Assembly: GCA_965199975.1 (NCBI GenBank)
Contig: OZ241340.1
Location: forward strand, 515,939 to 539,938
Source: Caulobacteraceae bacterium
GTDB lineage: Bacteria > Pseudomonadota > Alphaproteobacteria > Caulobacterales > Caulobacteraceae
Length of the DNA: 24,000 nucleotides
Direction: 5' to 3'
Below the pieces are notes generated by a model. It saw only the letters and a program-made list of their open reading frames with translations. It was not told the origin of the DNA and did not search any database. Of this stretch, positions 1-21,677 are shown one piece after another (the stretch's first letter is position 1; every line of letters starts with the position of its first letter). Made by a program: the position numbers and the translations under genes.

Positions 1-157
1 AGCGCGCGGCGGCGGCCTTGGCCATGGCCGCCAGCGTGTCGCCGGTGGAGTCCGACACCAGGTGCACGTGCAGGTAGGCCGCCAGCCGCTTGGACCGCGG
101 GGGGGGTGCGGCGGGCGGCCGCTGCGACAGTGCGGCTGAGGACGAAGGGTCGGACAT
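1..157 (-). CDS. DUF299-family kinase/pyrophosphorylase (pyruvate,phosphate dikinase / PEP synthase regulatory protein-like), 5' part only; gene runs off the left edge
   Basis: Reverse-strand translation from ATG (CAT at 155-157) gives MSDPSSSAALSQRPPAAPPPRSKRLAAYLHVHLVSDSTGDTLAAMAKAAAAR. The HLHLVSDSTGET-type motif is the hallmark N-terminus of DUF299/PpsR proteins. It is absent from the ORF track because there is no stop inside the window. An in-frame GTG at 67 is an alternative start. Confidence 0.65.
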   Translation of the reverse strand, partial: MSDPSSSAALSQRPPAAPPPRSKRLAAYLHVHLVSDSTGDTLAAMAKAAAAR

Positions 158-368
158 CTCGGCGCGGCCTCCGCTCCGCGCTGTGGACGGGCGCGCACAC
201 AACGCCCTTTCGCCGCCCGCGCCAAGGCGTGGGCGGGAGAACGCCCGCGGGGGCGCCGTCGTCCTCCCGCATGTGCAGTCGCGGCTGCGACGCCGCGCCG
301 CGCCGCGCGGGATGCACCACGGCCGTCCCTGCGACATCGGTTCGGCTGACTCCAGGCGCGGCCTGGCG

Positions 369-384
369 TTTACGAGTTGTTAAC
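369..384. promoter_or_regulatory. CtrA-box-like site TTTA-N7-TTAAC
   Basis: TTTACGAGTTGTTAAC has one mismatch to the CtrA full site TTAA-N7-TTAAC. Such a site is rare in DNA this GC-rich. Confidence 0.3.
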
Positions 385-385
385 G

Positions 386-394
386 CTCTCCACA
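386..394. promoter_or_regulatory. DnaA-box-like 9-mer CTCTCCACA
   Basis: 7/9 match to TTATCCACA with the CCACA core intact, directly abutting the CtrA-like site at 369-384. A second weaker candidate, TGTGGACGG at 182-190, is on the other strand sense. Confidence 0.3.
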
Positions 395-421
395 GACATC
401 GCCGCATTCGCGCCTGGAATG

Positions 422-437
422 TTAAGAAAGTGTGAAC
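422..437. promoter_or_regulatory. CtrA-box-like site TTAA-N7-TGAAC
   Basis: TTAAGAAAGTGTGAAC has one mismatch to TTAA-N7-TTAAC and lies 53 bp from the first site. Confidence 0.3.
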
Positions 438-467
438 GCGCCACGTCGCGCACGGTATGACCGCCGG

Positions 468-485
468 GTCGTCCCCGTCGTCCCC
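468..485. repeat. Perfect tandem 9-mer GTCGTCCCC x2
   Basis: Read directly: GTCGTCCCC (468-476) followed by GTCGTCCCC (477-485). The TCCCC core is reminiscent of weak DnaA W-box-type motifs described for Caulobacter (from memory). Confidence 0.9.
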
Positions 486-502
486 GACCTTTCTTCCTTC
501 GT

Positions 503-526
503 TTCTCGAAGAGTCCTTCTAGAAGA
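503..526. repeat. Twin 10-mers TTCTCGAAGA / TTCTAGAAGA, including the perfect palindrome CTTCTAGAAG
   Basis: 503-512 and 517-526 are 9/10 identical with a 14-bp phase. 516-525 is a perfect 10-bp palindrome. The pair is flanked by a pyrimidine run (488-500) and a purine run (521-543). Confidence 0.9.
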
Positions 527-595
527 AAAGATAAGGAGAGAGGCCGCAGCCACGGCAGGCTTGAGCGGGGGGGAGCCGGCGGGCTAAGTCGCCCC

Positions 596-1675
596 ATGAC
601 CTCCGCCGCCCCGGCGAACCCGCCCGTTCCGCCATCGGCGCCTTTGGCCCGGCCCGCGCTCCTGCGCGTGCTGGCGGGCGAGCGCACCCGGCGGCCCCCC
701 GTGTGGTTCATGCGCCAGGCCGGTCGCTACCTGCCCGAGTACCGCGCGCTGCGGACCACCGCGCCGGACTTCGTGAGCTTCTGCCTCGACCCGGAGAAGG
801 CGGCCGAGGCGACGCTGCAGCCCATGCGCCGCCTGCCGTATGACGCCGCCATCGTCTTCGCCGACATCCTGCTCATCCCCAAGGCGCTGGGCCAGGAGGT
901 GCGCTTCGAGGCCGGCGAGGGGCCGCGGCTGGGTGCGCTGCCCGACGTGCGCGCCATGGCCGACCTGGCGCAAGGCGCGGGCGCAGCGCTCTCGCAGGTG
1001 GGCGAGACGCTGAGCCGGGTGCGGGGCGCCCTGGAGCCCGAGCGCGCGCTGATCGGCTTCGCCGGCGCTCCGTGGACGGTGGCGACCTACATGCTGCAGG
1101 GCCGTGGCGGCGAGCGCGACGCCGCCATCGCCCGCGCCTACGCCGAGCCCGAGGCGATCGATGCGCTGCTGGACGTGCTGGTCGAGGCCTCGGCGCACTA
1201 CCTCCTCATGCAGGCGAAGGCCGGCGCCCAGGCGCTGCAGCTGTTCGAGAGCTGGGCCGAGGGCCTGGCGGAGGACCTGTTCGACCGGTTGGTCACGGGC
1301 CCCCACGTGCGCCTGATCGCCCGCCTGCGCGAACTGGGGTGCGACCTGCCGGTGATCGGCTTCCCCCGCGGGGCCGGCGCCCTGGTCGAGGGCTACGCCG
1401 CCGCCGTCCCCGTGCAGGGGATCGGGTTGGACACCCAGGCGCCCGCGGCGCTGGGCCGGCGGCTGCAGGCGCAGGGCTTGGCCATCCAGGGCGCGCTCGA
1501 TCCCATCCTGCTGCGCGCCGGCGGCCAAGCGCTCGACCGGCGGGTGGGCCAGCTGCTGGAGCAGTGGGGCGAGGGCCCCTACGTCTTCAACCTGGGCCAC
1601 GGCATATGGCCCGACACGCCGATCCCGCACGTCGAGCGCGTGCTCGCCCGCATCACCGCGGCGGGTGCGCCGTGA
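596..1675 (+). CDS. hemE: Uroporphyrinogen decarboxylase
   Basis: 359-aa ORF. PPVWFMRQAGRYLPEYR is the uroporphyrinogen decarboxylase signature. The stop TGA at 1673-1675 overlaps the GTG of the next gene (GTGA). Confidence 0.97.
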   Translation: MTSAAPANPPVPPSAPLARPALLRVLAGERTRRPPVWFMRQAGRYLPEYRALRTTAPDFVSFCLDPEKAAEATLQPMRRLPYDAAIVFADILLIPKALGQEVRFEAGEGPRLGALPDVRAMADLAQGAGAALSQVGETLSRVRGALEPERALIGFAGAPWTVATYMLQGRGGERDAAIARAYAEPEAIDALLDVLVEASAHYLLMQAKAGAQALQLFESWAEGLAEDLFDRLVTGPHVRLIARLRELGCDLPVIGFPRGAGALVEGYAAAVPVQGIGLDTQAPAALGRRLQAQGLAIQGALDPILLRAGGQALDRRVGQLLEQWGEGPYVFNLGHGIWPDTPIPHVERVLARITAAGAP

Positions 1676-2769
1676 GCGATCCCCGCGAGGGCCGCAAGGT
1701 CGCGGTGGTGCTGTTCAACCTCGGCGGCCCCGACAGCCTCAAGGCGGTGCGGCCCTTCCTGTTCAACCTGTTCCGCGACCGGGCCATCATCGGCCTGCCG
1801 GCCATCGCGCGCCTGCCCCTGGCGGCGCTGGTCGCCTTCACCCGCAACAAGGAGGCGAGGGGCAACTACGCCCACATGGGCGGCTCCACGCCCCTGCTGC
1901 GCGAGACGCAGGCGCAGGCGCAGGCGCTGGAGGCGGCGCTCGCCGGCGCGGGCCGCCCTGGCGACGAGGTGAAGGCCTTCATCGCCATGCGCTACTGGAC
2001 GCCCTTCACCGAGGACGCCGCACGCGAGGTGGCGGCCTGGGGGCCCGACGAGGTCGTGCTCCTGCCGCTCTACCCGCAATTTTCCACGACCACGACGGCG
2101 AGCTCGCTCATGGCCTGGCGGCGCGCCTACAAGGGCCCGGGCCGCTCCCGCACGGTCTGCTGCTGGCCGACGCTGGACGGCCTGATCCAGGCCCACGCCG
2201 ACCATCTCGTCGGGGTGTGGGAGGGGGCGGGCAAGCCCGACGGCCTACGCCTGCTGTTTTCGGCCCACGGTCTGCCGGAACGGGTGATCGAGGCGGGGGA
2301 CCCCTACCAGTGGCAGGTGGAGCGCACCTGCGCAGCGGTGGTCGACCGGGTGCGCGGGCGGCTCGGCGGCGAGAGCGGCGTGGTCGATTGGCGCGTCTGC
2401 TACCAGAGCCGGGTCGGGCCGCTGAAGTGGATCGGCCCCTCCACCCCCGAGGCGATCGAGACGGCCGCCGGCGAGGGCATGGGGGTGATGATCACGCCGA
2501 TCGCCTTCGTCTCCGAGCATGTGGAGACACTGGTCGAACTCGACCGGGACTATTCCGAGCTGGCTGAGAGCCTGGACGCCCCGCACTACCTGCGCGTGCC
2601 GGCGCTGGGCGTGGCGCAGACCTTCATCGCCGGCTTGGCCGAGATGGTGCATCGTGCGCTGCGCCGAGACGACGACGTGGAGAGCGACAGCGAAGTGCGC
2701 ATTTGCCCCGCCGAGTTCGGCCGCTGCCCTGCCCGCTTCGGCCAAAAGTCGGCCCAGGCGAGGGTGTGA
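1672..2769 (+). CDS. hemH: Ferrochelatase
   Basis: Same frame as ORF 1072-2769, whose first ~200 codons are a stop-free run inside hemE. The start is taken at GTG 1672 (VSDPREGRKVAVVLFNLGGPD), a typical ferrochelatase N-terminus. LLFSAHGLPERV is the ferrochelatase signature. 365 aa. Confidence 0.94.
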   Translation: MSDPREGRKVAVVLFNLGGPDSLKAVRPFLFNLFRDRAIIGLPAIARLPLAALVAFTRNKEARGNYAHMGGSTPLLRETQAQAQALEAALAGAGRPGDEVKAFIAMRYWTPFTEDAAREVAAWGPDEVVLLPLYPQFSTTTTASSLMAWRRAYKGPGRSRTVCCWPTLDGLIQAHADHLVGVWEGAGKPDGLRLLFSAHGLPERVIEAGDPYQWQVERTCAAVVDRVRGRLGGESGVVDWRVCYQSRVGPLKWIGPSTPEAIETAAGEGMGVMITPIAFVSEHVETLVELDRDYSELAESLDAPHYLRVPALGVAQTFIAGLAEMVHRALRRDDDVESDSEVRICPAEFGRCPARFGQKSAQARV

Positions 2770-3233
2770 TGGGCGATCCTTACGACTGGTTGCGGGGGCT
2801 GCACATCCTGGCGGTGATAGCCTGGATGGCGGGCCTGCTCTACTTGCCGCGGCTCTACGTCTATCACTTCCGCACTGCGCCAGGCTCCGAGACGGATGCG
2901 ACCTTCCAGGTGATGGAGCGCCGGCTGCTGCGTGGGATCATGAACCCGGCGATGATCGTGACGTGGGCGTTCGGCCTGACCTTGATCTGGTACGACTCGA
3001 CCTACCGCTTCGGCAGCGCCGCCAAGTTCCTCGGCCAGCCGTGGATGAGCGCCAAGCTGACGGCGGTCGTGCTGCTGACGGCCTTCCACATGTACCTAGC
3101 GGTCGCGCGCAAGCGCTTCGCCGCGGGGAGCTACCCCCGCACCGAACGCTTCTGGCGCTTCGCCAACGAGGTTCCGGCGGTGCTGGCGGTGGTCGCCGTG
3201 TTGGCGGTGACGACGGAGTTCATGAGCCGCTAG
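2769..3233 (+). CDS. hemJ: HemJ-family protoporphyrinogen IX oxidase (UPF0093 membrane protein)
   Basis: Frame of ORF 2703-3233. The start is taken at ATG 2769 (MGDPYDWLRGLHILAVIAWMAGLLYLPRLYVYHF), sharing 1 nt with the hemH stop (TGATG). It is a multi-TM protein with the conserved His-containing first helix of HemJ, and it sits directly after hemH. Confidence 0.88.
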   Translation: MGDPYDWLRGLHILAVIAWMAGLLYLPRLYVYHFRTAPGSETDATFQVMERRLLRGIMNPAMIVTWAFGLTLIWYDSTYRFGSAAKFLGQPWMSAKLTAVVLLTAFHMYLAVARKRFAAGSYPRTERFWRFANEVPAVLAVVAVLAVTTEFMSR

Positions 3234-8624: not shown

Positions 8625-11486
8625 TTACGCGGGGTGCGCGGGAGCGGCAAGCGAGCCCGGCCCCACGAAAGCCGCCACCTGCTCGATCGCCTCCACGAGC
8701 CCCACGCGCTGCACGTCCACCCCTTCCGGCAGGCCGCTGAACAGGCGGGTGGGGGCGGCCGCGTCGAGCATGACGAAGACGCCCCTGTCGTCGGCGCGGC
8801 GGATCAGGCGGCCGAAGGCCTGGGCGATGCGGGCGCGGGCCAGGGCGTCGTCGTAGGCGCGGCCGCCGAAGCGTTCGCGCCGGGCCTTGTGCAGGAGGTC
8901 GGGGCGCGGCCAGGGCACGCGGTCGAAGCACAGCAGCCGCAGCGAACGGCCCGGCACGTCCACCCCGTCGCGGATGGCGTCGGTGCCGAGGAGGCAGCTG
9001 TCCTCCTCGGCGCGGAACACGTCCACCAGCGCGCCGGCCTCCAGCGGGTCCACGTGCTGGGCGTAGAGCGGCAGCCCCGCCTCGCCCAGCGGCGCGGCGA
9101 TCCGGTCGTAGACGAGGCGCAGCCTGCGGATGGCGGTGAACAGGCCCACCGCGCCGCCGCCCGCGGCCAGGAACAGCTCGCGCATGGCGGCGGCGACCTG
9201 GCGCGGGTCGTCCTTGCCCACGTCGGTGACCACCAGCGCGCGGGCGTGGGCGGCGTAGTCGAACGGCGAGGCCAGCCGCAGCAGCTTGGGCGCGTCGGCC
9301 AGGCGCGCGGCGCCGGTGCGCATCTCGGCCAGGGCGAAGGGGCTGTCGTGGCCGGGGTCGGACAGGGTGGCGGAGGTGACCAGCACCCCGTGCGCGGGCT
9401 TGAGCACGGTCTCGGCCAGGGGCTCGGTGGGGTCGACGAAGTGGCGGCGGTAGGCGGCGTCGGCGGTGCGGTTGAAGGCCCACACGCTCTCGAACCAGTC
9501 GACGAAGTGCGGATCGTCCGCACCCTGATCGAGCTGGCGCAGCATGCCGCGCCAGGCGGGCAGCTGCACCCGCGCCCGCCGTTCCAGCCCACGCAGGGCG
9601 CCTTCGATGCGGGCGCGCGAGCCGGTGTCGAGGTCGTCCGCCTCCTCGTCGAGCAGGTCCTCCAGCGTCTTGGCCAGCTGCAGCAAGGGCGTTTCCAAGG
9701 CGGCCAGCGCCGAGGCGGCGGCGGACGCCGCTGCGGAGACGGCGTCGACGGGCGGACGGGCGGCGCACTCCTGGCCGCCCTCCGCCTGGCCCCGCGCGCC
9801 TTCGGCGCGGGCGCGCACCTGGTCGAGCACCGCCGCCAGGAACGCCTCCACCGGGCCGATCGGGCGCGGCGGCAGCATGTCGCCATCCATGTCGGGCGGG
9901 GGCGCGATGCGGCCGCTCCAGCCCTCGCCGGGGAGGGCTGCGGCGGCGCGGACGGCCGCGGCCAGCATGTCGCGCGCACCCTCGTGGTCAGCCAGCACCT
10001 CGGAGAGCCGCGTGTCGAGCCCCCGCCCGCGGCGGCGACCCTCGGGCCCGCGGATCCAGCGGCGCAGCTCGGCCGCCTCCTGGCCGGAGAGGCAGGCGGA
10101 AAAGGCGCTGTCGGCGGCGTCGAACAGGTGGTGGCCCTCGTCGAACACCAGGCGCTTCAGCCGCGCGGTCTCGCCGTCCTGGCGCCGCCGCCCCTGGTCG
10201 AAGGCGGCCTGGCTCAGCACGAGCGCGTGGTTGGCGATGACGAGGTCGGCGCGGCGCGAGGCGCGCACCGCCTTCTCCACGAAGCAGGTGCGGTAATGGG
10301 CGCAGCCGGCGTGCACGCACTCCCCGCGCCGGTCCATCAGGTTGGCGGGGCCGGCCTGGGCGAGCGACCCCACGGCGAACAGGGTGGGCAGCCAGGCGGG
10401 GAAGTCGCCGCCGGTCATGTCGCCGTCGCGGGTGGCGCGCAGCCAGCGGGCGACGAGGCCCACGCCCACCGCGTCCGCCCCGCCGGTGGCCGCGCCCGCG
10501 GCCAGATCCTGGTAGTTGAGGAGGCACGCGTAGTTCTCGCGCCCCTTGCGCACCACCGCCTTCTTGGCGTGCACCTCCGGGTCGGGGAAGACGCTGCGGC
10601 TCTCCCGCTCGATCTGGCGCTGCAGGGCGCGGGTGTAGGTCGAGACCCACACCGCCGGCCCGTTCTGCTCCGCCCACAGGCTGGCCGGGGCGAGATAGCC
10701 CAGCGTCTTGCCGACGCCCGTGCCCGCCTCGGCCAGCATCAGGCGCGGCTCACCCTCGCGCTCGCGTGGCGAGAAGGCGTGGGCGGCCTCGGCGGCGTAA
10801 TTCGCCTGCGCCGCGCGCGCCTCGTCCAGCCCCGAGCGGGCGAGGAGGTCGGCGAGCCGCGCCTGCGCCCCCTCGGGCGTCACGGCCTGCGAGCCCGGCT
10901 GCCCCTGCGGCGCCTCGTCCTCCCACTCCGGCAGGCGCGCCCACACGTCGAGGCCGTTGCCGCGCAGCCGCCCGTGCTCGCGGCTGGCCAGCGCCTCGCG
11001 CACCCGCGAGCCCCAGGCCCAGCCGGCGCGCTCCAGGTGCAGGGCGGCGGCCAGCGCCTCCTCGCGGGAGGGGAGGGGGCTTTCGGCCAGCTCGTCCAGC
11101 AGCAGGCGCGCCGCCTCGCGCAGGGCCGCCGCCTGCTCGGGTGCGGTGCGCGGCTCCGCCAGCCCCAGCGCCCGGGCGAGGCCCACGGGCGAGGGCGCGC
11201 ACGGCCGCGCGGGGCGGGCGAAGGCGTAGAGCTCCAGTGCGTCGAAGATGTCGGGCGAGCGCGGCGGCGCCGAGAGCCCCAGCCGCCGCGCGGTGAGGCT
11301 GGCGTGCGCCACTAGCGCCGGCTCGCGCTGCAAGGCGTGGCGGGCGGCGCCTGGGAGGAGGTCGCGCGCCGGCCCCTCGCCGTCGTCGATTGCGGCGCGG
11401 GGTCCGGGCAGCACCACGATCGCCGTCGGCAAGGCCACGGAGGGCGCGGCCGTCTCGGTCAGCGATGCGGCGTCGGGCGCGTCCAC
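8625..11486 (-). CDS. DinG/XPD(Rad3)-family ATP-dependent DNA helicase with a long N-terminal extension
   Basis: 953-aa ORF starting at GTG 11486. Walker A is AEAGTGVGKT and the DEAH-type box is FDEGHH. Four Cys lie between them (NYAC … GECVHAGCAHYRTC), as in the Fe-S domain of DinG/XPD helicases. Confidence 0.88.
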   Translation of the reverse strand: MDAPDAASLTETAAPSVALPTAIVVLPGPRAAIDDGEGPARDLLPGAARHALQREPALVAHASLTARRLGLSAPPRSPDIFDALELYAFARPARPCAPSPVGLARALGLAEPRTAPEQAAALREAARLLLDELAESPLPSREEALAAALHLERAGWAWGSRVREALASREHGRLRGNGLDVWARLPEWEDEAPQGQPGSQAVTPEGAQARLADLLARSGLDEARAAQANYAAEAAHAFSPREREGEPRLMLAEAGTGVGKTLGYLAPASLWAEQNGPAVWVSTYTRALQRQIERESRSVFPDPEVHAKKAVVRKGRENYACLLNYQDLAAGAATGGADAVGVGLVARWLRATRDGDMTGGDFPAWLPTLFAVGSLAQAGPANLMDRRGECVHAGCAHYRTCFVEKAVRASRRADLVIANHALVLSQAAFDQGRRRQDGETARLKRLVFDEGHHLFDAADSAFSACLSGQEAAELRRWIRGPEGRRRGRGLDTRLSEVLADHEGARDMLAAAVRAAAALPGEGWSGRIAPPPDMDGDMLPPRPIGPVEAFLAAVLDQVRARAEGARGQAEGGQECAARPPVDAVSAAASAAASALAALETPLLQLAKTLEDLLDEEADDLDTGSRARIEGALRGLERRARVQLPAWRGMLRQLDQGADDPHFVDWFESVWAFNRTADAAYRRHFVDPTEPLAETVLKPAHGVLVTSATLSDPGHDSPFALAEMRTGAARLADAPKLLRLASPFDYAAHARALVVTDVGKDDPRQVAAAMRELFLAAGGGAVGLFTAIRRLRLVYDRIAAPLGEAGLPLYAQHVDPLEAGALVDVFRAEEDSCLLGTDAIRDGVDVPGRSLRLLCFDRVPWPRPDLLHKARRERFGGRAYDDALARARIAQAFGRLIRRADDRGVFVMLDAAAPTRLFSGLPEGVDVQRVGLVEAIEQVAAFVGPGSLAAPAHPA

Positions 11487-19729: not shown

Positions 19730-20356
19730 ATGGGCCTGATCGTCTTTCCCGCCCTGGTGTCGGACGCGGACCCCGCCGACCTCACCGCCAGCTTCCCCGA
19801 CTTCGCCGATCTGTCCGTTCGCGCCGCCAGCCCGATCGAACTTCTCCTGCGCGCGCGAGAGCGCCTGACGCAGGTGCTGCGCGATCTGGAGAAGGCGGGC
19901 GACGCCTGGCCCACGCCCTCGACGCTGGCCGAGGCCCGGGCGAGCGCTCCGGACCATCCGGGCTCGGTGGTGTGGGTCGACGTCGAGGTCGAGGACACGC
20001 CGGTGCGCGTCACCATCTCGATCGGCGAGCGCCTGCTCGCCCGCATCGACGCGGCCGCCGAGGAGCACGCCATGACCCGCTCGGGCTATCTTGCGGCCGC
20101 CGCGCGCCGCCAGATCGGCGTGGGCGGCTCGCCGCTGGACGGCGCCACCGGCCAGCGCATCTACGAGGAGGTCGCCGCCGCCGGCCGCCGCATCCAGGAG
20201 ACGCTGGGGCCCGAGTCGCCTGTCGGTCGCACCCTCGCGGAACTGGACACCATCGCGCTGGACGGGCTGCGCCGGGTCGCCAACGGCGTCTCCGGGGCGA
20301 TGCGGGGCCGCCCGCAGCCGCGCCGACCCGATCCGCCCCAGCCCGACGCGCACTGA
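19730..20356 (+). CDS. HicB-family antitoxin-like protein (HicB fold + ribbon-helix-helix) with a long C-terminal tail; no HicA partner
   Basis: Frame of ORF 19655-20356. The start is taken at ATG 19730, preceded by GGAGG and a 5-nt spacer. MGLIVFPALVSDADPADLTASFPDFADLSVRAASPIELLLRARERL matches the HicB N-domain pattern. VRVTISIGERLLARIDAAAEEHAMTRSGYLAAAARR is an RHH. About 75 further residues have no recognisable motif. Confidence 0.78.
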   Translation: MGLIVFPALVSDADPADLTASFPDFADLSVRAASPIELLLRARERLTQVLRDLEKAGDAWPTPSTLAEARASAPDHPGSVVWVDVEVEDTPVRVTISIGERLLARIDAAAEEHAMTRSGYLAAAARRQIGVGGSPLDGATGQRIYEEVAAAGRRIQETLGPESPVGRTLAELDTIALDGLRRVANGVSGAMRGRPQPRRPDPPQPDAH

Positions 20357-20484: not shown

Positions 20485-21042
20485 ATGACCCTCGCCGAAC
20501 CCGACCTAAAGCGCTGGCTGCTCGCGGGCCTGGATGGCGACGCCGTCGCCTACAGGCGTCTGCTGGAGGCGTTGCGGCGCGGCCTCACGCCCTTTTTCCG
20601 GCGCCGCATGGGGCGCGACGTCGGCGAGGTGGAGGACCTGGTGCAGGAGACTCTCATCGCGGTGCACGCCAAGCGCGCGACCTTCGACAGGTCCCAGTCG
20701 GTGAGCGCCTGGGTCTACGCCATCGCCCGCTACAAGCTGATCGACCACTACCGCCGCAGCGGTCGGCGCGTGCACGTGCCGCTCGAAGAAGCGGGCGAGC
20801 TGTGGGTCGCCGACGAGAGCGCCGCCGTCGATGCGCGCCGCGACATCGAGCGCGGCCTGGCCGACCTGCCCGAGCGCGCCCGCGACCTCGTGCGCAGCGT
20901 CAAGCTGCAGGAGGTTCCGGTCGCCGAGGTGGCGGCGCGCACGGGCATGTCGGAGGGGGCGGTGAAGGTGGCGGTTCATCGCGGGTTCGTGCGCCTGGCC
21001 GCCCGCATGCGGCGCGACGAACCGGCGGAGGGCGACCGGTGA
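20485..21042 (+). CDS. sigF: ECF (sigma-70 family) RNA polymerase sigma factor, sigF/ECF16-like
   Basis: 185-aa ORF with region 2 (EDLVQETLIAVHAKRATFD…WVYAIARYKLIDHYRR) and region 4 (LPERARDLVRSVKLQEVPVAEVAARTGMSEGAVKVAVHRG). The stop overlaps the start of an NrsF/DUF1109 gene (GTGA). Confidence 0.88.
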   Translation: MTLAEPDLKRWLLAGLDGDAVAYRRLLEALRRGLTPFFRRRMGRDVGEVEDLVQETLIAVHAKRATFDRSQSVSAWVYAIARYKLIDHYRRSGRRVHVPLEEAGELWVADESAAVDARRDIERGLADLPERARDLVRSVKLQEVPVAEVAARTGMSEGAVKVAVHRGFVRLAARMRRDEPAEGDR

Positions 21043-21677
21043 GCGACGACCTGATCGGGCGACTCGCGGCGGACCTGCGGCCCGTGCCGCGCTTGGCGGT
21101 GGCGCGCCGGCTGGCGGTGGGGCTGGGCCTGGGCGCGCTGGGTTCGGCCCTGCTCACCTGGGCGACGCTGGGCTTCCGGCCGGACATGCCGCAGGCCATG
21201 CGCGAGGCGATGTTCTGGGTGAAGCTGGCCTACACCCTGGCGATCGGCGGCGTGGCTCTATGGGCCTGCGAGCGGCTGGCGCGGCCCTCGGGCGCCGCCG
21301 GGCGCCGCGCCGTCTGGCTCGCCTTGCCGGTGGTCGCGGTCGTGAGCTTCGCCGCGTCGGAGCTGCTGCGCGCGCCGGCGCCCATGCGAATGCCGATGAT
21401 CATGGGGAGCTCGTCGCAGGTGTGCCCGTGGTGCATCGCAACCTTCTCCCTGCCGCCGCTCCTGGGTCTGATCTGGGCGGTGCGGGGCCTCGCGCCGACG
21501 CGGCTGCGGCTGACGGGGCTGATGATCGGCCTGGCCGCCGGCGGGATGGGCGCGAGCGTCTACGCCCTGCACTGCCCGGAGCCGACGGCGCCCTTCCTGG
21601 CGGTCTGGTACACCCTGGGCATCGCCACCGCCGCGGCGATCGGCGCGGCCATAGGCCCGCGCCTGCTGCGCTGGTGA
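21039..21677 (+). CDS. nrsF: NrsF-family (DUF1109) membrane anti-sigma factor
   Basis: Frame of ORF 20802-21677. The start is taken at GTG 21039 (VSDDLIGRLAADLRPVPR…), the typical DUF1109 N-terminus, followed by six hydrophobic segments. Cys motifs are CPWC and HCPEPTAPF. 212 aa. Confidence 0.85.
   Translation: MSDDLIGRLAADLRPVPRLAVARRLAVGLGLGALGSALLTWATLGFRPDMPQAMREAMFWVKLAYTLAIGGVALWACERLARPSGAAGRRAVWLALPVVAVVSFAASELLRAPAPMRMPMIMGSSSQVCPWCIATFSLPPLLGLIWAVRGLAPTRLRLTGLMIGLAAGGMGASVYALHCPEPTAPFLAVWYTLGIATAAAIGAAIGPRLLRW

Follow-up and report, generated by a model that had tools for sequence, protein, structure and literature searches.

In the window analysed here, a 24,000-nt stretch of contig OZ241340.1 (GenBank assembly GCA_965199975.1, Caulobacteraceae bacterium), the intergenic gap at positions 158-595 is very probably the chromosomal replication origin of this uncultured Caulobacterales bacterium and homologous to Cori, the origin of Caulobacter crescentus. 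Cori was mapped between hemE and CC0001/DUF299 (CCNA_00001) (PMC6393856; PMC1914354), and its G-box, W-box, CtrA and AT-rich elements have been described (PMC4285127, PMC6393856, PMC4468827, PMC1914354). A preliminary description of the window, made from its letters alone, had taken the gap to be the chromosomal origin. The proposal was supported by the DUF299/hemE synteny, by non-coding homology with the gaps of relatives (E=1.1e-9), by conserved sequence blocks, by the location of the least stable duplex and by a skew switch at the same place in relatives. Provided that the gap is the origin, CtrA probably acts on it, as judged from two candidate sites; origin function and CtrA control taken together are moderately probable. 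The gap is a divergent member of the known Caulobacter-type origin family. It is no new kind of system, origins of this type being well known already at this position. Its elements were as follows.

158-595, no strand assigned: intergenic gap, proposed Cori-type origin; left half (158-365) lineage-specific, right half (366-541) conserved core
182-190, minus strand: DnaA-box-like TGTGGACGG, with its TCCACA core on the minus strand; matches the left-hand conserved box of relatives, CCTGTGGACG
348-352, no strand assigned: GANTC (GACTC), CcrM-type methylation motif; second copy in the gap at 511-515; weak evidence
369-384, plus strand: predicted CtrA-type site 1, TTTAC-N6-TTAAC (TTTACGAGTTGTTAAC); sole match to the loose CtrA rule in the window
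386-394, plus strand: DnaA-box-like CTCTCCACA, core TCCACA; 2 bp from CtrA-type site 1 and on the conserved block TTnTCCCCGCnATTCACAG
422-437, minus strand (by best matrix score): predicted CtrA-like site 2, TTAA-N7-TGAAC; one mismatch from the full site
468-486, plus strand: tandem head-to-tail 9-mers GTCGTCCCC/GTCGTCCCC(G), taken as two weak DnaA boxes of W-box-like type (TCCCC core); adjoins the unwinding region
482-541, no strand assigned: pyrimidine tract followed by an A+T-rich block, candidate DNA-unwinding element; least stable duplex of the window at 30, 40 and 60 bp
561-590, plus strand: hemE promoter-like element, TTGAGC(G) at 561-567, a 15-nt spacer and GCTAAGTC at 583-590; CTTGAGC nearly invariant in 28 sequences

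Synteny, homology and composition of the gap

The flanking genes had been described as divergent, with hemE starting at 596 on the plus strand and a DUF299/PpsR-like gene starting at 157 on the minus strand, and matches to Pfam URO-D and NCBIfam PRK05339 bore this out. The order maf, aroE, coaE, dnaQ, predicted to follow DUF299 to the left, was also present, with every gene on the minus strand; this left flank was read from the European Nucleotide Archive (ENA) metagenome contig ERZ24825755:k141_42666, which is 99.6% identical to the window. The same gene cluster on the DUF299 side has been described at the Caulobacter and Rickettsia origins (PMC1914354). Further to the right the window carries the housekeeping genes hslUV, his genes, ftsH, polA and ruvC, which point to the main chromosome. 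For comparison we collected 54 Caulobacterales-type loci and 48 other alphaproteobacterial loci with a divergent DUF299/hemE pair. Among the Caulobacterales-type loci in which both genes could be placed, the divergent pair was found in 54 out of 54.

A profile hidden Markov model was built from the non-coding gap cores of the 54 relatives, with the window left out. Searched with nhmmer against the 24-kb window, it gave a single match, at 366-536 on the plus strand (E=1.1e-9, 31 bits). Leave-one-out profiles of the same kind recovered the gap in all 54 relatives with scores of 18-111 bits, the window being among the weakest. The order of elements in the relatives was conserved. A reverse CCTGTGGACG box and TGGGGA boxes near DUF299 were followed by a central full CtrA site, then by TTnTCCCCGCnATTCACAG, a reverse CTGGGGAC, GGTTATCCCCG and a second TCATCCCCGG, and finally by a pyrimidine tract, an A+T-rich block and a nearly invariant CTTGAGC ... 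TTTAAG just ahead of the hemE ATG. The elements of the window fell on these blocks: CTCTCCACA on the TCCACAG block, the tandem GTCGTCCCC on the TYATCCCCG pair, TGTGAACG on CTGGGGAC, the A+T-rich block on its counterpart and TTGAGCG-N15-GCTAAGTC (561-590) on the promoter-like block. The alignment of the gaps covers 28 sequences, and the profile columns cover 54.

The composition of the gap agreed with the preliminary description at each point. A hand count of about 58% A+T for 486-540 had been given, and the computed value was 58.2%, compared with 27.7% for the window (G+C 72.3%). The gap core, said to be the most A+T-rich part of the window, contained both its top 180-mer (369-548, 45% A+T) and its top 55-mer (487-541, 60% A+T). 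A strand-asymmetric pyrimidine/purine block was likewise present, pyrimidines making up 76% of 487-520 and purines 85% of 521-547. By nearest-neighbour stability, the weakest duplexes of the 24 kb were at 482-541 (60-mer), 502-541 (40-mer) and 508-537 (30-mer), and the A+T content of 482-541 was 58-60%. The position and character of this block were kept in the relatives, in the gap alignment and in the profile columns alike; in Cori a 40-bp AT-rich region lies beside hemE (PMC1914354). The left half of the gap (158-365) was 78% G+C. Three mechanical open reading frames (97-113 aa) overlap the gap, none with a Pfam match or a coding-type signal of third-position G+C, in agreement with the earlier statement that it holds no credible reading frame. 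GANTC occurred twice in the gap, compared with 0.35 expected (P=0.05). A perfect 10-nt inverted repeat, TCCAGGCGCG (351-360) and CGCGCCTGGA (409-418), brackets CtrA-type site 1 and the DnaA-like box, and a smaller palindrome, CCAGGC-GCG-GCCTGG, was found at 352-366. The hairpin at 352-366, before site 1, was no more stable than controls across 46 loci.

At the hemE edge of the gap, the promoter-like element resembles the Caulobacter sigma-73 consensus TTGACGS...GCTANAWC. Its GCTAAGTC ends 6 nt ahead of the hemE ATG, which suggests that the hemE mRNA would be leaderless or nearly so. Seven consecutive G (567-573) fall within the spacer of the element. A scan of 1-900 for promoters of the E. coli type and for terminators found nothing.

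Predicted DnaA and CtrA sites

The DnaA-like motifs named in the preliminary description, CTCTCCACA (386-394), TGTGGACGG (182-190) and two copies of GTCGTCCCC (468-485), were all found where it had placed them. In the box at 386-394 the CA at 393-394 was invariant in the 28 aligned sequences and conserved in the 54. In the tandem pair, T472, C473, C474 and C476 were invariant in the 28 sequences, and the consensus of the relatives at this place was GGTTATCCCCG followed by TCATCCCCGG; the W-box has been defined as TCCCCA (PMC4285127). The octamer TGTGAACG at 431-438, the right half of CtrA-like site 2, can equally be read as a reverse-oriented DnaA box and aligned with the conserved CTGGGGAC of relatives. 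The exact correspondence of 182-190 is ambiguous, since MAFFT placed the conserved left box on window positions 137-144 (TGAGGACG) and 182-189 on the next TGGGGA box. The core hexamers TCCACA (P=0.018) and TCCCCG (P=0.06) each occurred twice in the gap, a modest enrichment. These degenerate boxes (TCCACA twice, TCCCCG twice and TGTGAACG) occupy the conserved box columns of the relatives and are candidate DnaA sites. No clean 3-nt register of a DnaA-trio was seen by eye after the tandem boxes, and no formal test was made.

The two sites reported as one mismatch from the CtrA full site were likewise confirmed, TTTA-N7-TTAAC at 369-384 and TTAA-N7-TGAAC at 422-437. With at most one mismatch, TTAA-N7-TTAA occurred twice on both strands of the 24 kb, both times inside the gap, compared with 0.06 expected. 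Dinucleotide-preserving shuffles of the gap contained 0.013 such sites on average (P=0.0002), and shuffling of the A+T-rich core alone gave P=0.001. Site 1 was the only match in the 24 kb (0.03 expected) to the loose CtrA rule TTWW-N7-TTWW (PMC1914354). It aligned with the perfect sites of two relatives (L001 and L007), which share its layout: TTAA-N7-TTAAC, four bases and then TCC(A/C)CAG. In C. crescentus a CtrA site overlaps or adjoins a G-box (PMC6393856; PMC4468827), and the position of site 1 beside the box at 386-394, as in L001 and L007, agrees with this rule. The two sites lie at -308 and -255 from hemE codon 28, and those of relatives at -350 to -250.

CtrA is known to be general across Caulobacterales. 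Perfect TTAA-N7-TTAA sites in the relatives numbered 73 in 26.3 kb of gaps and 1 in 802 kb of flanks, an enrichment of more than 2000-fold. At least one perfect site was present in the gaps of 47 of the 54 Caulobacterales loci compared with 4 of the 48 other alphaproteobacterial loci. We built a position weight matrix from the 70 unique perfect sites of the relatives; it scored site 2 at 21.6 bits and site 1 at 20.2 bits, and the best position outside the gap at 3.5 bits. The N7 spacer of these 70 sites from Caulobacterales gaps was non-random, with the consensus GTTAA-GGTTTCG-TTAAC and a T-rich centre.

The gap resembles Cori in its flanking genes and their orientation (PMC6393856), in predicted weak DnaA boxes built on TCCACA and TCCCC cores (PMC4285127), in predicted CtrA-type TTAA-N7-TTAA sites, one of them beside a DnaA-like box, in an A+T-rich block that lies towards hemE and measures about 40-60 bp, and in a putative hemE promoter at the edge (PMC1914354). 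Unlike Cori, which has five strong CtrA sites, the window has two imperfect ones, and none in the A+T-rich block, where a site at about -110 to -125 is present in five Caulobacter-like relatives (L008, L017, L024, L025 and L027). It also differs in the missing exact G-box and W-box, in having no detectable counterpart of the DUF299-proximal half, which in Cori holds ccnA and its CtrA box, and in having no supported integration host factor (IHF) site. An IHF site proposed from the 9-nt identity of TAACGCTCT to a published C. crescentus IHF string was rejected, as the identity was neither significant nor conserved. The sole match to the IHF consensus in the gap (370-382) has two mismatches, and the window showed no enrichment (9 found, 14 expected). 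An IHF site that overlaps a CtrA site is an accessory trait of Caulobacter-type origins and does not define them.

Gaps from Brevundimonas, Phenylobacterium and other Caulobacterales metagenome-assembled genomes (MAGs; L001-L027, L082-L111) have a core homologous to that of the window and the same order of blocks, their origins being only predicted. Among these relatives the window stands out by the lowest A+T content of the gap segment in the set (29%, compared with 31-53%) and by the lack of a perfect CtrA site. The hemE/DUF299 borders are also shared with other alphaproteobacterial hemE origins, such as that of Rickettsia prowazekii (hemE/COG1806; PMC1914354) and the Maricaulis-like and Rhizobiaceae loci. 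A skew switch at third codon positions was found in 25 of 26 such loci. Perfect CtrA sites are rare in their gaps. According to a review, no CtrA sites are seen in most other alphaproteobacterial origins, and their use in marine Caulobacter probably arose independently (PMC4468827). Compared with the generic bacterial oriC of E. coli, the gap has a similar cluster of DnaA-box-like elements in two orientations with an adjoining A+T-rich unwinding region, but it has no high-affinity TTATCCACA box, is not beside dnaA or dnaN and carries putative sites for a response-regulator repressor.

The exact 16-mer of site 1, TTTACGANTTGTTAAC (TTTAC-GAnTTG-TTAAC), was also found in the hemE/DUF299 gaps of three Maricaulis-like loci, L031 (9591), L033 (9557) and L116 (9569), and of one Rhizobiaceae MAG, L065 (9814). 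Elsewhere in the fetched DNA, 2.2 Mb searched on both strands, it did not occur. The Maricaulis-like copies stand some 25 nt upstream of the start codon of DUF299, whereas the copy in the window is central. It is possible, though doubtful, that TTTACGANTTGTTAAC is no decayed Caulobacter CtrA box but an old and widely shared alphaproteobacterial origin element, serving as a CtrA-type operator of fixed spacing or bound by some other protein. If so, it would speak against the view that freshwater and marine caulobacters came to use CtrA independently, and the lineage would be a natural minimal Cori, with neither a perfect CtrA box nor the ccnA half and with two variant sites clamped onto DnaA boxes.

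Competing explanations, strand asymmetry and a proposed mechanism

Several observations weigh against an origin under CtrA control. The gap contains neither an exact G-box (TGATCCACA) nor an exact W-box (TCCCCA). No perfect CtrA site was found on either strand of the 24 kb, both candidate sites score below the lowest training site of the matrix (23.0 bits), and the central CtrA site of most relatives has decayed here to TTCG-N7-CCAG (341-355). Site 2 does not satisfy the TTWW rule, and the DnaA-type box column of relatives coincides with the right half of the site; since it nevertheless keeps the T-rich spacer of the family, it is ambiguous between a CtrA site and a DnaA-type box. Three relatives have no CtrA-like site at all, and C. 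crescentus can do without the CtrA sites of Cori when grown in minimal medium (PMC6393856).

A further point concerns the DUF299-proximal half of the gap. A profile of this half recovered 48 of the 54 relatives and found no match in the window; it also missed the nearest relatives (L001, L004 and L083). Because the core profile does match, recognisable conservation is confined to the right half of the gap. In Caulobacter the DUF299-proximal half holds the small-RNA gene ccnA, which is known only there (PMC8959179). Searches of the window for a ccnA-like small RNA gave no match with the left-half profile and no relevant match in Rfam. The three nearest relatives have also lost the DUF299-proximal half.

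The observations on the CtrA sites would all fit an origin on which CtrA does not act, its sites being decaying relics or mere neighbours of DnaA boxes and initiation depending on DnaA availability alone, the more so as the missing half carries a CtrA box together with ccnA in Caulobacter. We consider this unlikely, but it is the strongest of the alternatives. Across 48 kb of searched strand no other position comes within 15 bits of either site, and the spacer kept by site 2 is that of the family. The recurrence of the exact site-1 16-mer in the origin gaps of four further loci is more suggestive of selection than of decay, site 1 retains the layout of L001 and L007 in which the CtrA site abuts the DnaA box, and CtrA has been reported to bind imperfect halves (PMC1914354).

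The strand asymmetry of the window itself gives no positive evidence for an origin at this place. In its 43-kb composite neither raw nor cumulative GC skew switched at the gap, because skew there follows the strand of the genes, whose coding strand is C-rich at third positions. GC skew at third codon positions (GC3 skew) was dominated by gene orientation, with a strand coefficient of -0.11 to -0.14 in all loci and in the window genes, so plain GC-skew plots hide the replication signal in these genomes. We therefore regressed plus-strand GC3 skew on gene strand and chromosome arm. For the window, using called genes over 43 kb, the arm coefficient was -0.013 (interval -0.044 to +0.017), or +0.02 within +/-10 kb, which is within about 1-1.4 standard deviations of the relatives (standard deviation 0.044). 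In the relatives it was +0.049 (bootstrap 95% interval 0.039-0.061), the loci being related and not independent samples, and a positive value was obtained for 30 of the 33 Caulobacterales loci and for 25 of the 26 others. Errors of the crude gene caller bias this coefficient downward, so that it is conservative. The GC3-skew switch of the relatives at the gap has the polarity of an origin and not of a terminus. Their genes were on the minus strand 209 times and on the plus strand 148 times to the left of the gap, and 266 times on the plus and 59 times on the minus strand to the right.

The lack of a skew switch in the window's own 43 kb would be in line with the gap being a mere divergent promoter or regulatory region of hemE and DUF299, perhaps regulated by CtrA, with the origin elsewhere, for example after a rearrangement. 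The conserved promoter-like element at 561-590 also fits this. CtrA boxes also serve as promoter elements, usually at -35 (PMC11264516), and certain lineages, Wolbachia among them, have hemE and COG1806 split from the origin (PMC1914354). We nevertheless regard this explanation as improbable: the full DUF299-maf-aroE-coaE-dnaQ/hemE synteny is intact, the conserved blocks are DnaA-box-like, and the least stable duplex of the window directly adjoins the pair of weak boxes. A skew switch with origin polarity was seen at this same gap in 55 of 59 related loci, and a plain promoter region is not expected to retain non-coding homology detectable over 170 bp among loci whose hemE proteins are 60-73% identical. 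That short motifs containing A+T merely happened to cluster in an ordinary, A+T-richer spacer is hardly credible, for although all the motifs are degenerate and short motifs are easily found by eye, shuffles preserving local composition gave P=0.0002 to 0.001, the profile match has E=1e-9 and the motifs fall on conserved columns.

With the gap taken as a Caulobacter-type origin, the composition, conservation and position observed for its elements allow a mechanism to be proposed in which binding, opening and cell-cycle control would follow the C. crescentus pattern. By homology with Cori, DnaA would load cooperatively on weak boxes, those at 182-189 and 431-438 in one orientation and those at 386-394 and 468-486 in the opposite one, and would open the adjacent pyrimidine and A+T-rich block (482-541), whose computed stability is low. 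Phosphorylated CtrA would bind at 369-384 and probably also at 422-436. Since the CtrA-like sites abut or overlap the boxes at 386-394 and 431-438, it would exclude DnaA from both and might hold replication off in the G1/swarmer stage, as in C. crescentus. The hemE promoter (561-590) presumably directs transcription away from the opened DNA and, as has been reported for Cori, may help it to open. Forks would move off to both sides, and by their observed strands the nearest genes to the left and right would be co-oriented with them.

With the gap as the origin, the replication arms and coordinate zero can be placed in the genome of an uncultured, deep-branching Caulobacterales bacterium with 72% G+C. 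The gap also provides a divergent example of the Cori family. It has kept the TCCACAG block, which is DnaA-like, the TYATCCCCG pair next to the unwinding region, and the hemE promoter. The parts it shows to be expendable are CtrA boxes that match perfectly, the half bearing ccnA, and a CtrA box within the A+T-rich block.

Flanking genes and source sequence

The genes that border the gap, and those directly downstream of hemE, were the following.

1-157, minus strand: 5′ end of the DUF299/PpsR-like gene (pyruvate phosphate dikinase/PEP synthase regulator), start codon at 155-157; left origin border
596-1675, plus strand: hemE (uroporphyrinogen decarboxylase), Pfam URO-D 1e-95; right origin border
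1672-2769, plus strand: hemH, Pfam Ferrochelatase 4e-99; downstream of hemE
2769-3233, plus strand: hemJ, TIGR00701 match; downstream of hemH

The window holds 52 codons of the DUF299/PpsR-like gene, up to position 157. The full DUF299 gene in locus L081 matched NCBIfam PRK05339 with 322 bits (cut-off 225) and also Pfam Kinase-PPPase. An OmpR-family regulator 6 kb to the left of the gap was considered as CtrA and ruled out, scoring 112 bits against a cut-off of 350. Inside the DUF299 coding region, at 36-123 on the minus strand, Rfam gave a sub-threshold match to the Caulobacter small RNA CC1840 (26 bits, gathering score 50, E=0.31), which is probably due to chance.

The closest matches to the hemE protein in the genome and metagenome collections came from Caulobacterales, Brevundimonas, Phenylobacterium and Caulobacter MAGs, with an identity of 72-73% at most. 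No relative above 73% hemE identity, as would serve for fine footprinting, was found in the genome or metagenome contig collections. An identical hemE protein is encoded on the 125-kb ENA contig from which the left flank was read, and this contig, being 99.6% identical to the window, is a strain-level variant of it. One protein of the window was also found in the sequencing runs ERR13475221, ERR13475222 and ERR13475225. The two differ in the gap at only three positions (214, 218 and 547), none of them inside a motif. Of the 48 substitutions between the window and the contig, 31 cluster within 226 bp (9576-9801) of a DinG/YoaA-like helicase gene (8625-11486, minus strand), which looks like a recombination patch or a strain-variable segment. 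Towards the right end of the window, a gene for an ECF-type sigma factor (20485-21042) is followed by one for an NrsF-family anti-sigma factor (21039-21677), and a HicB-like antitoxin gene (19730-20356) lies just upstream of the sigma factor gene.

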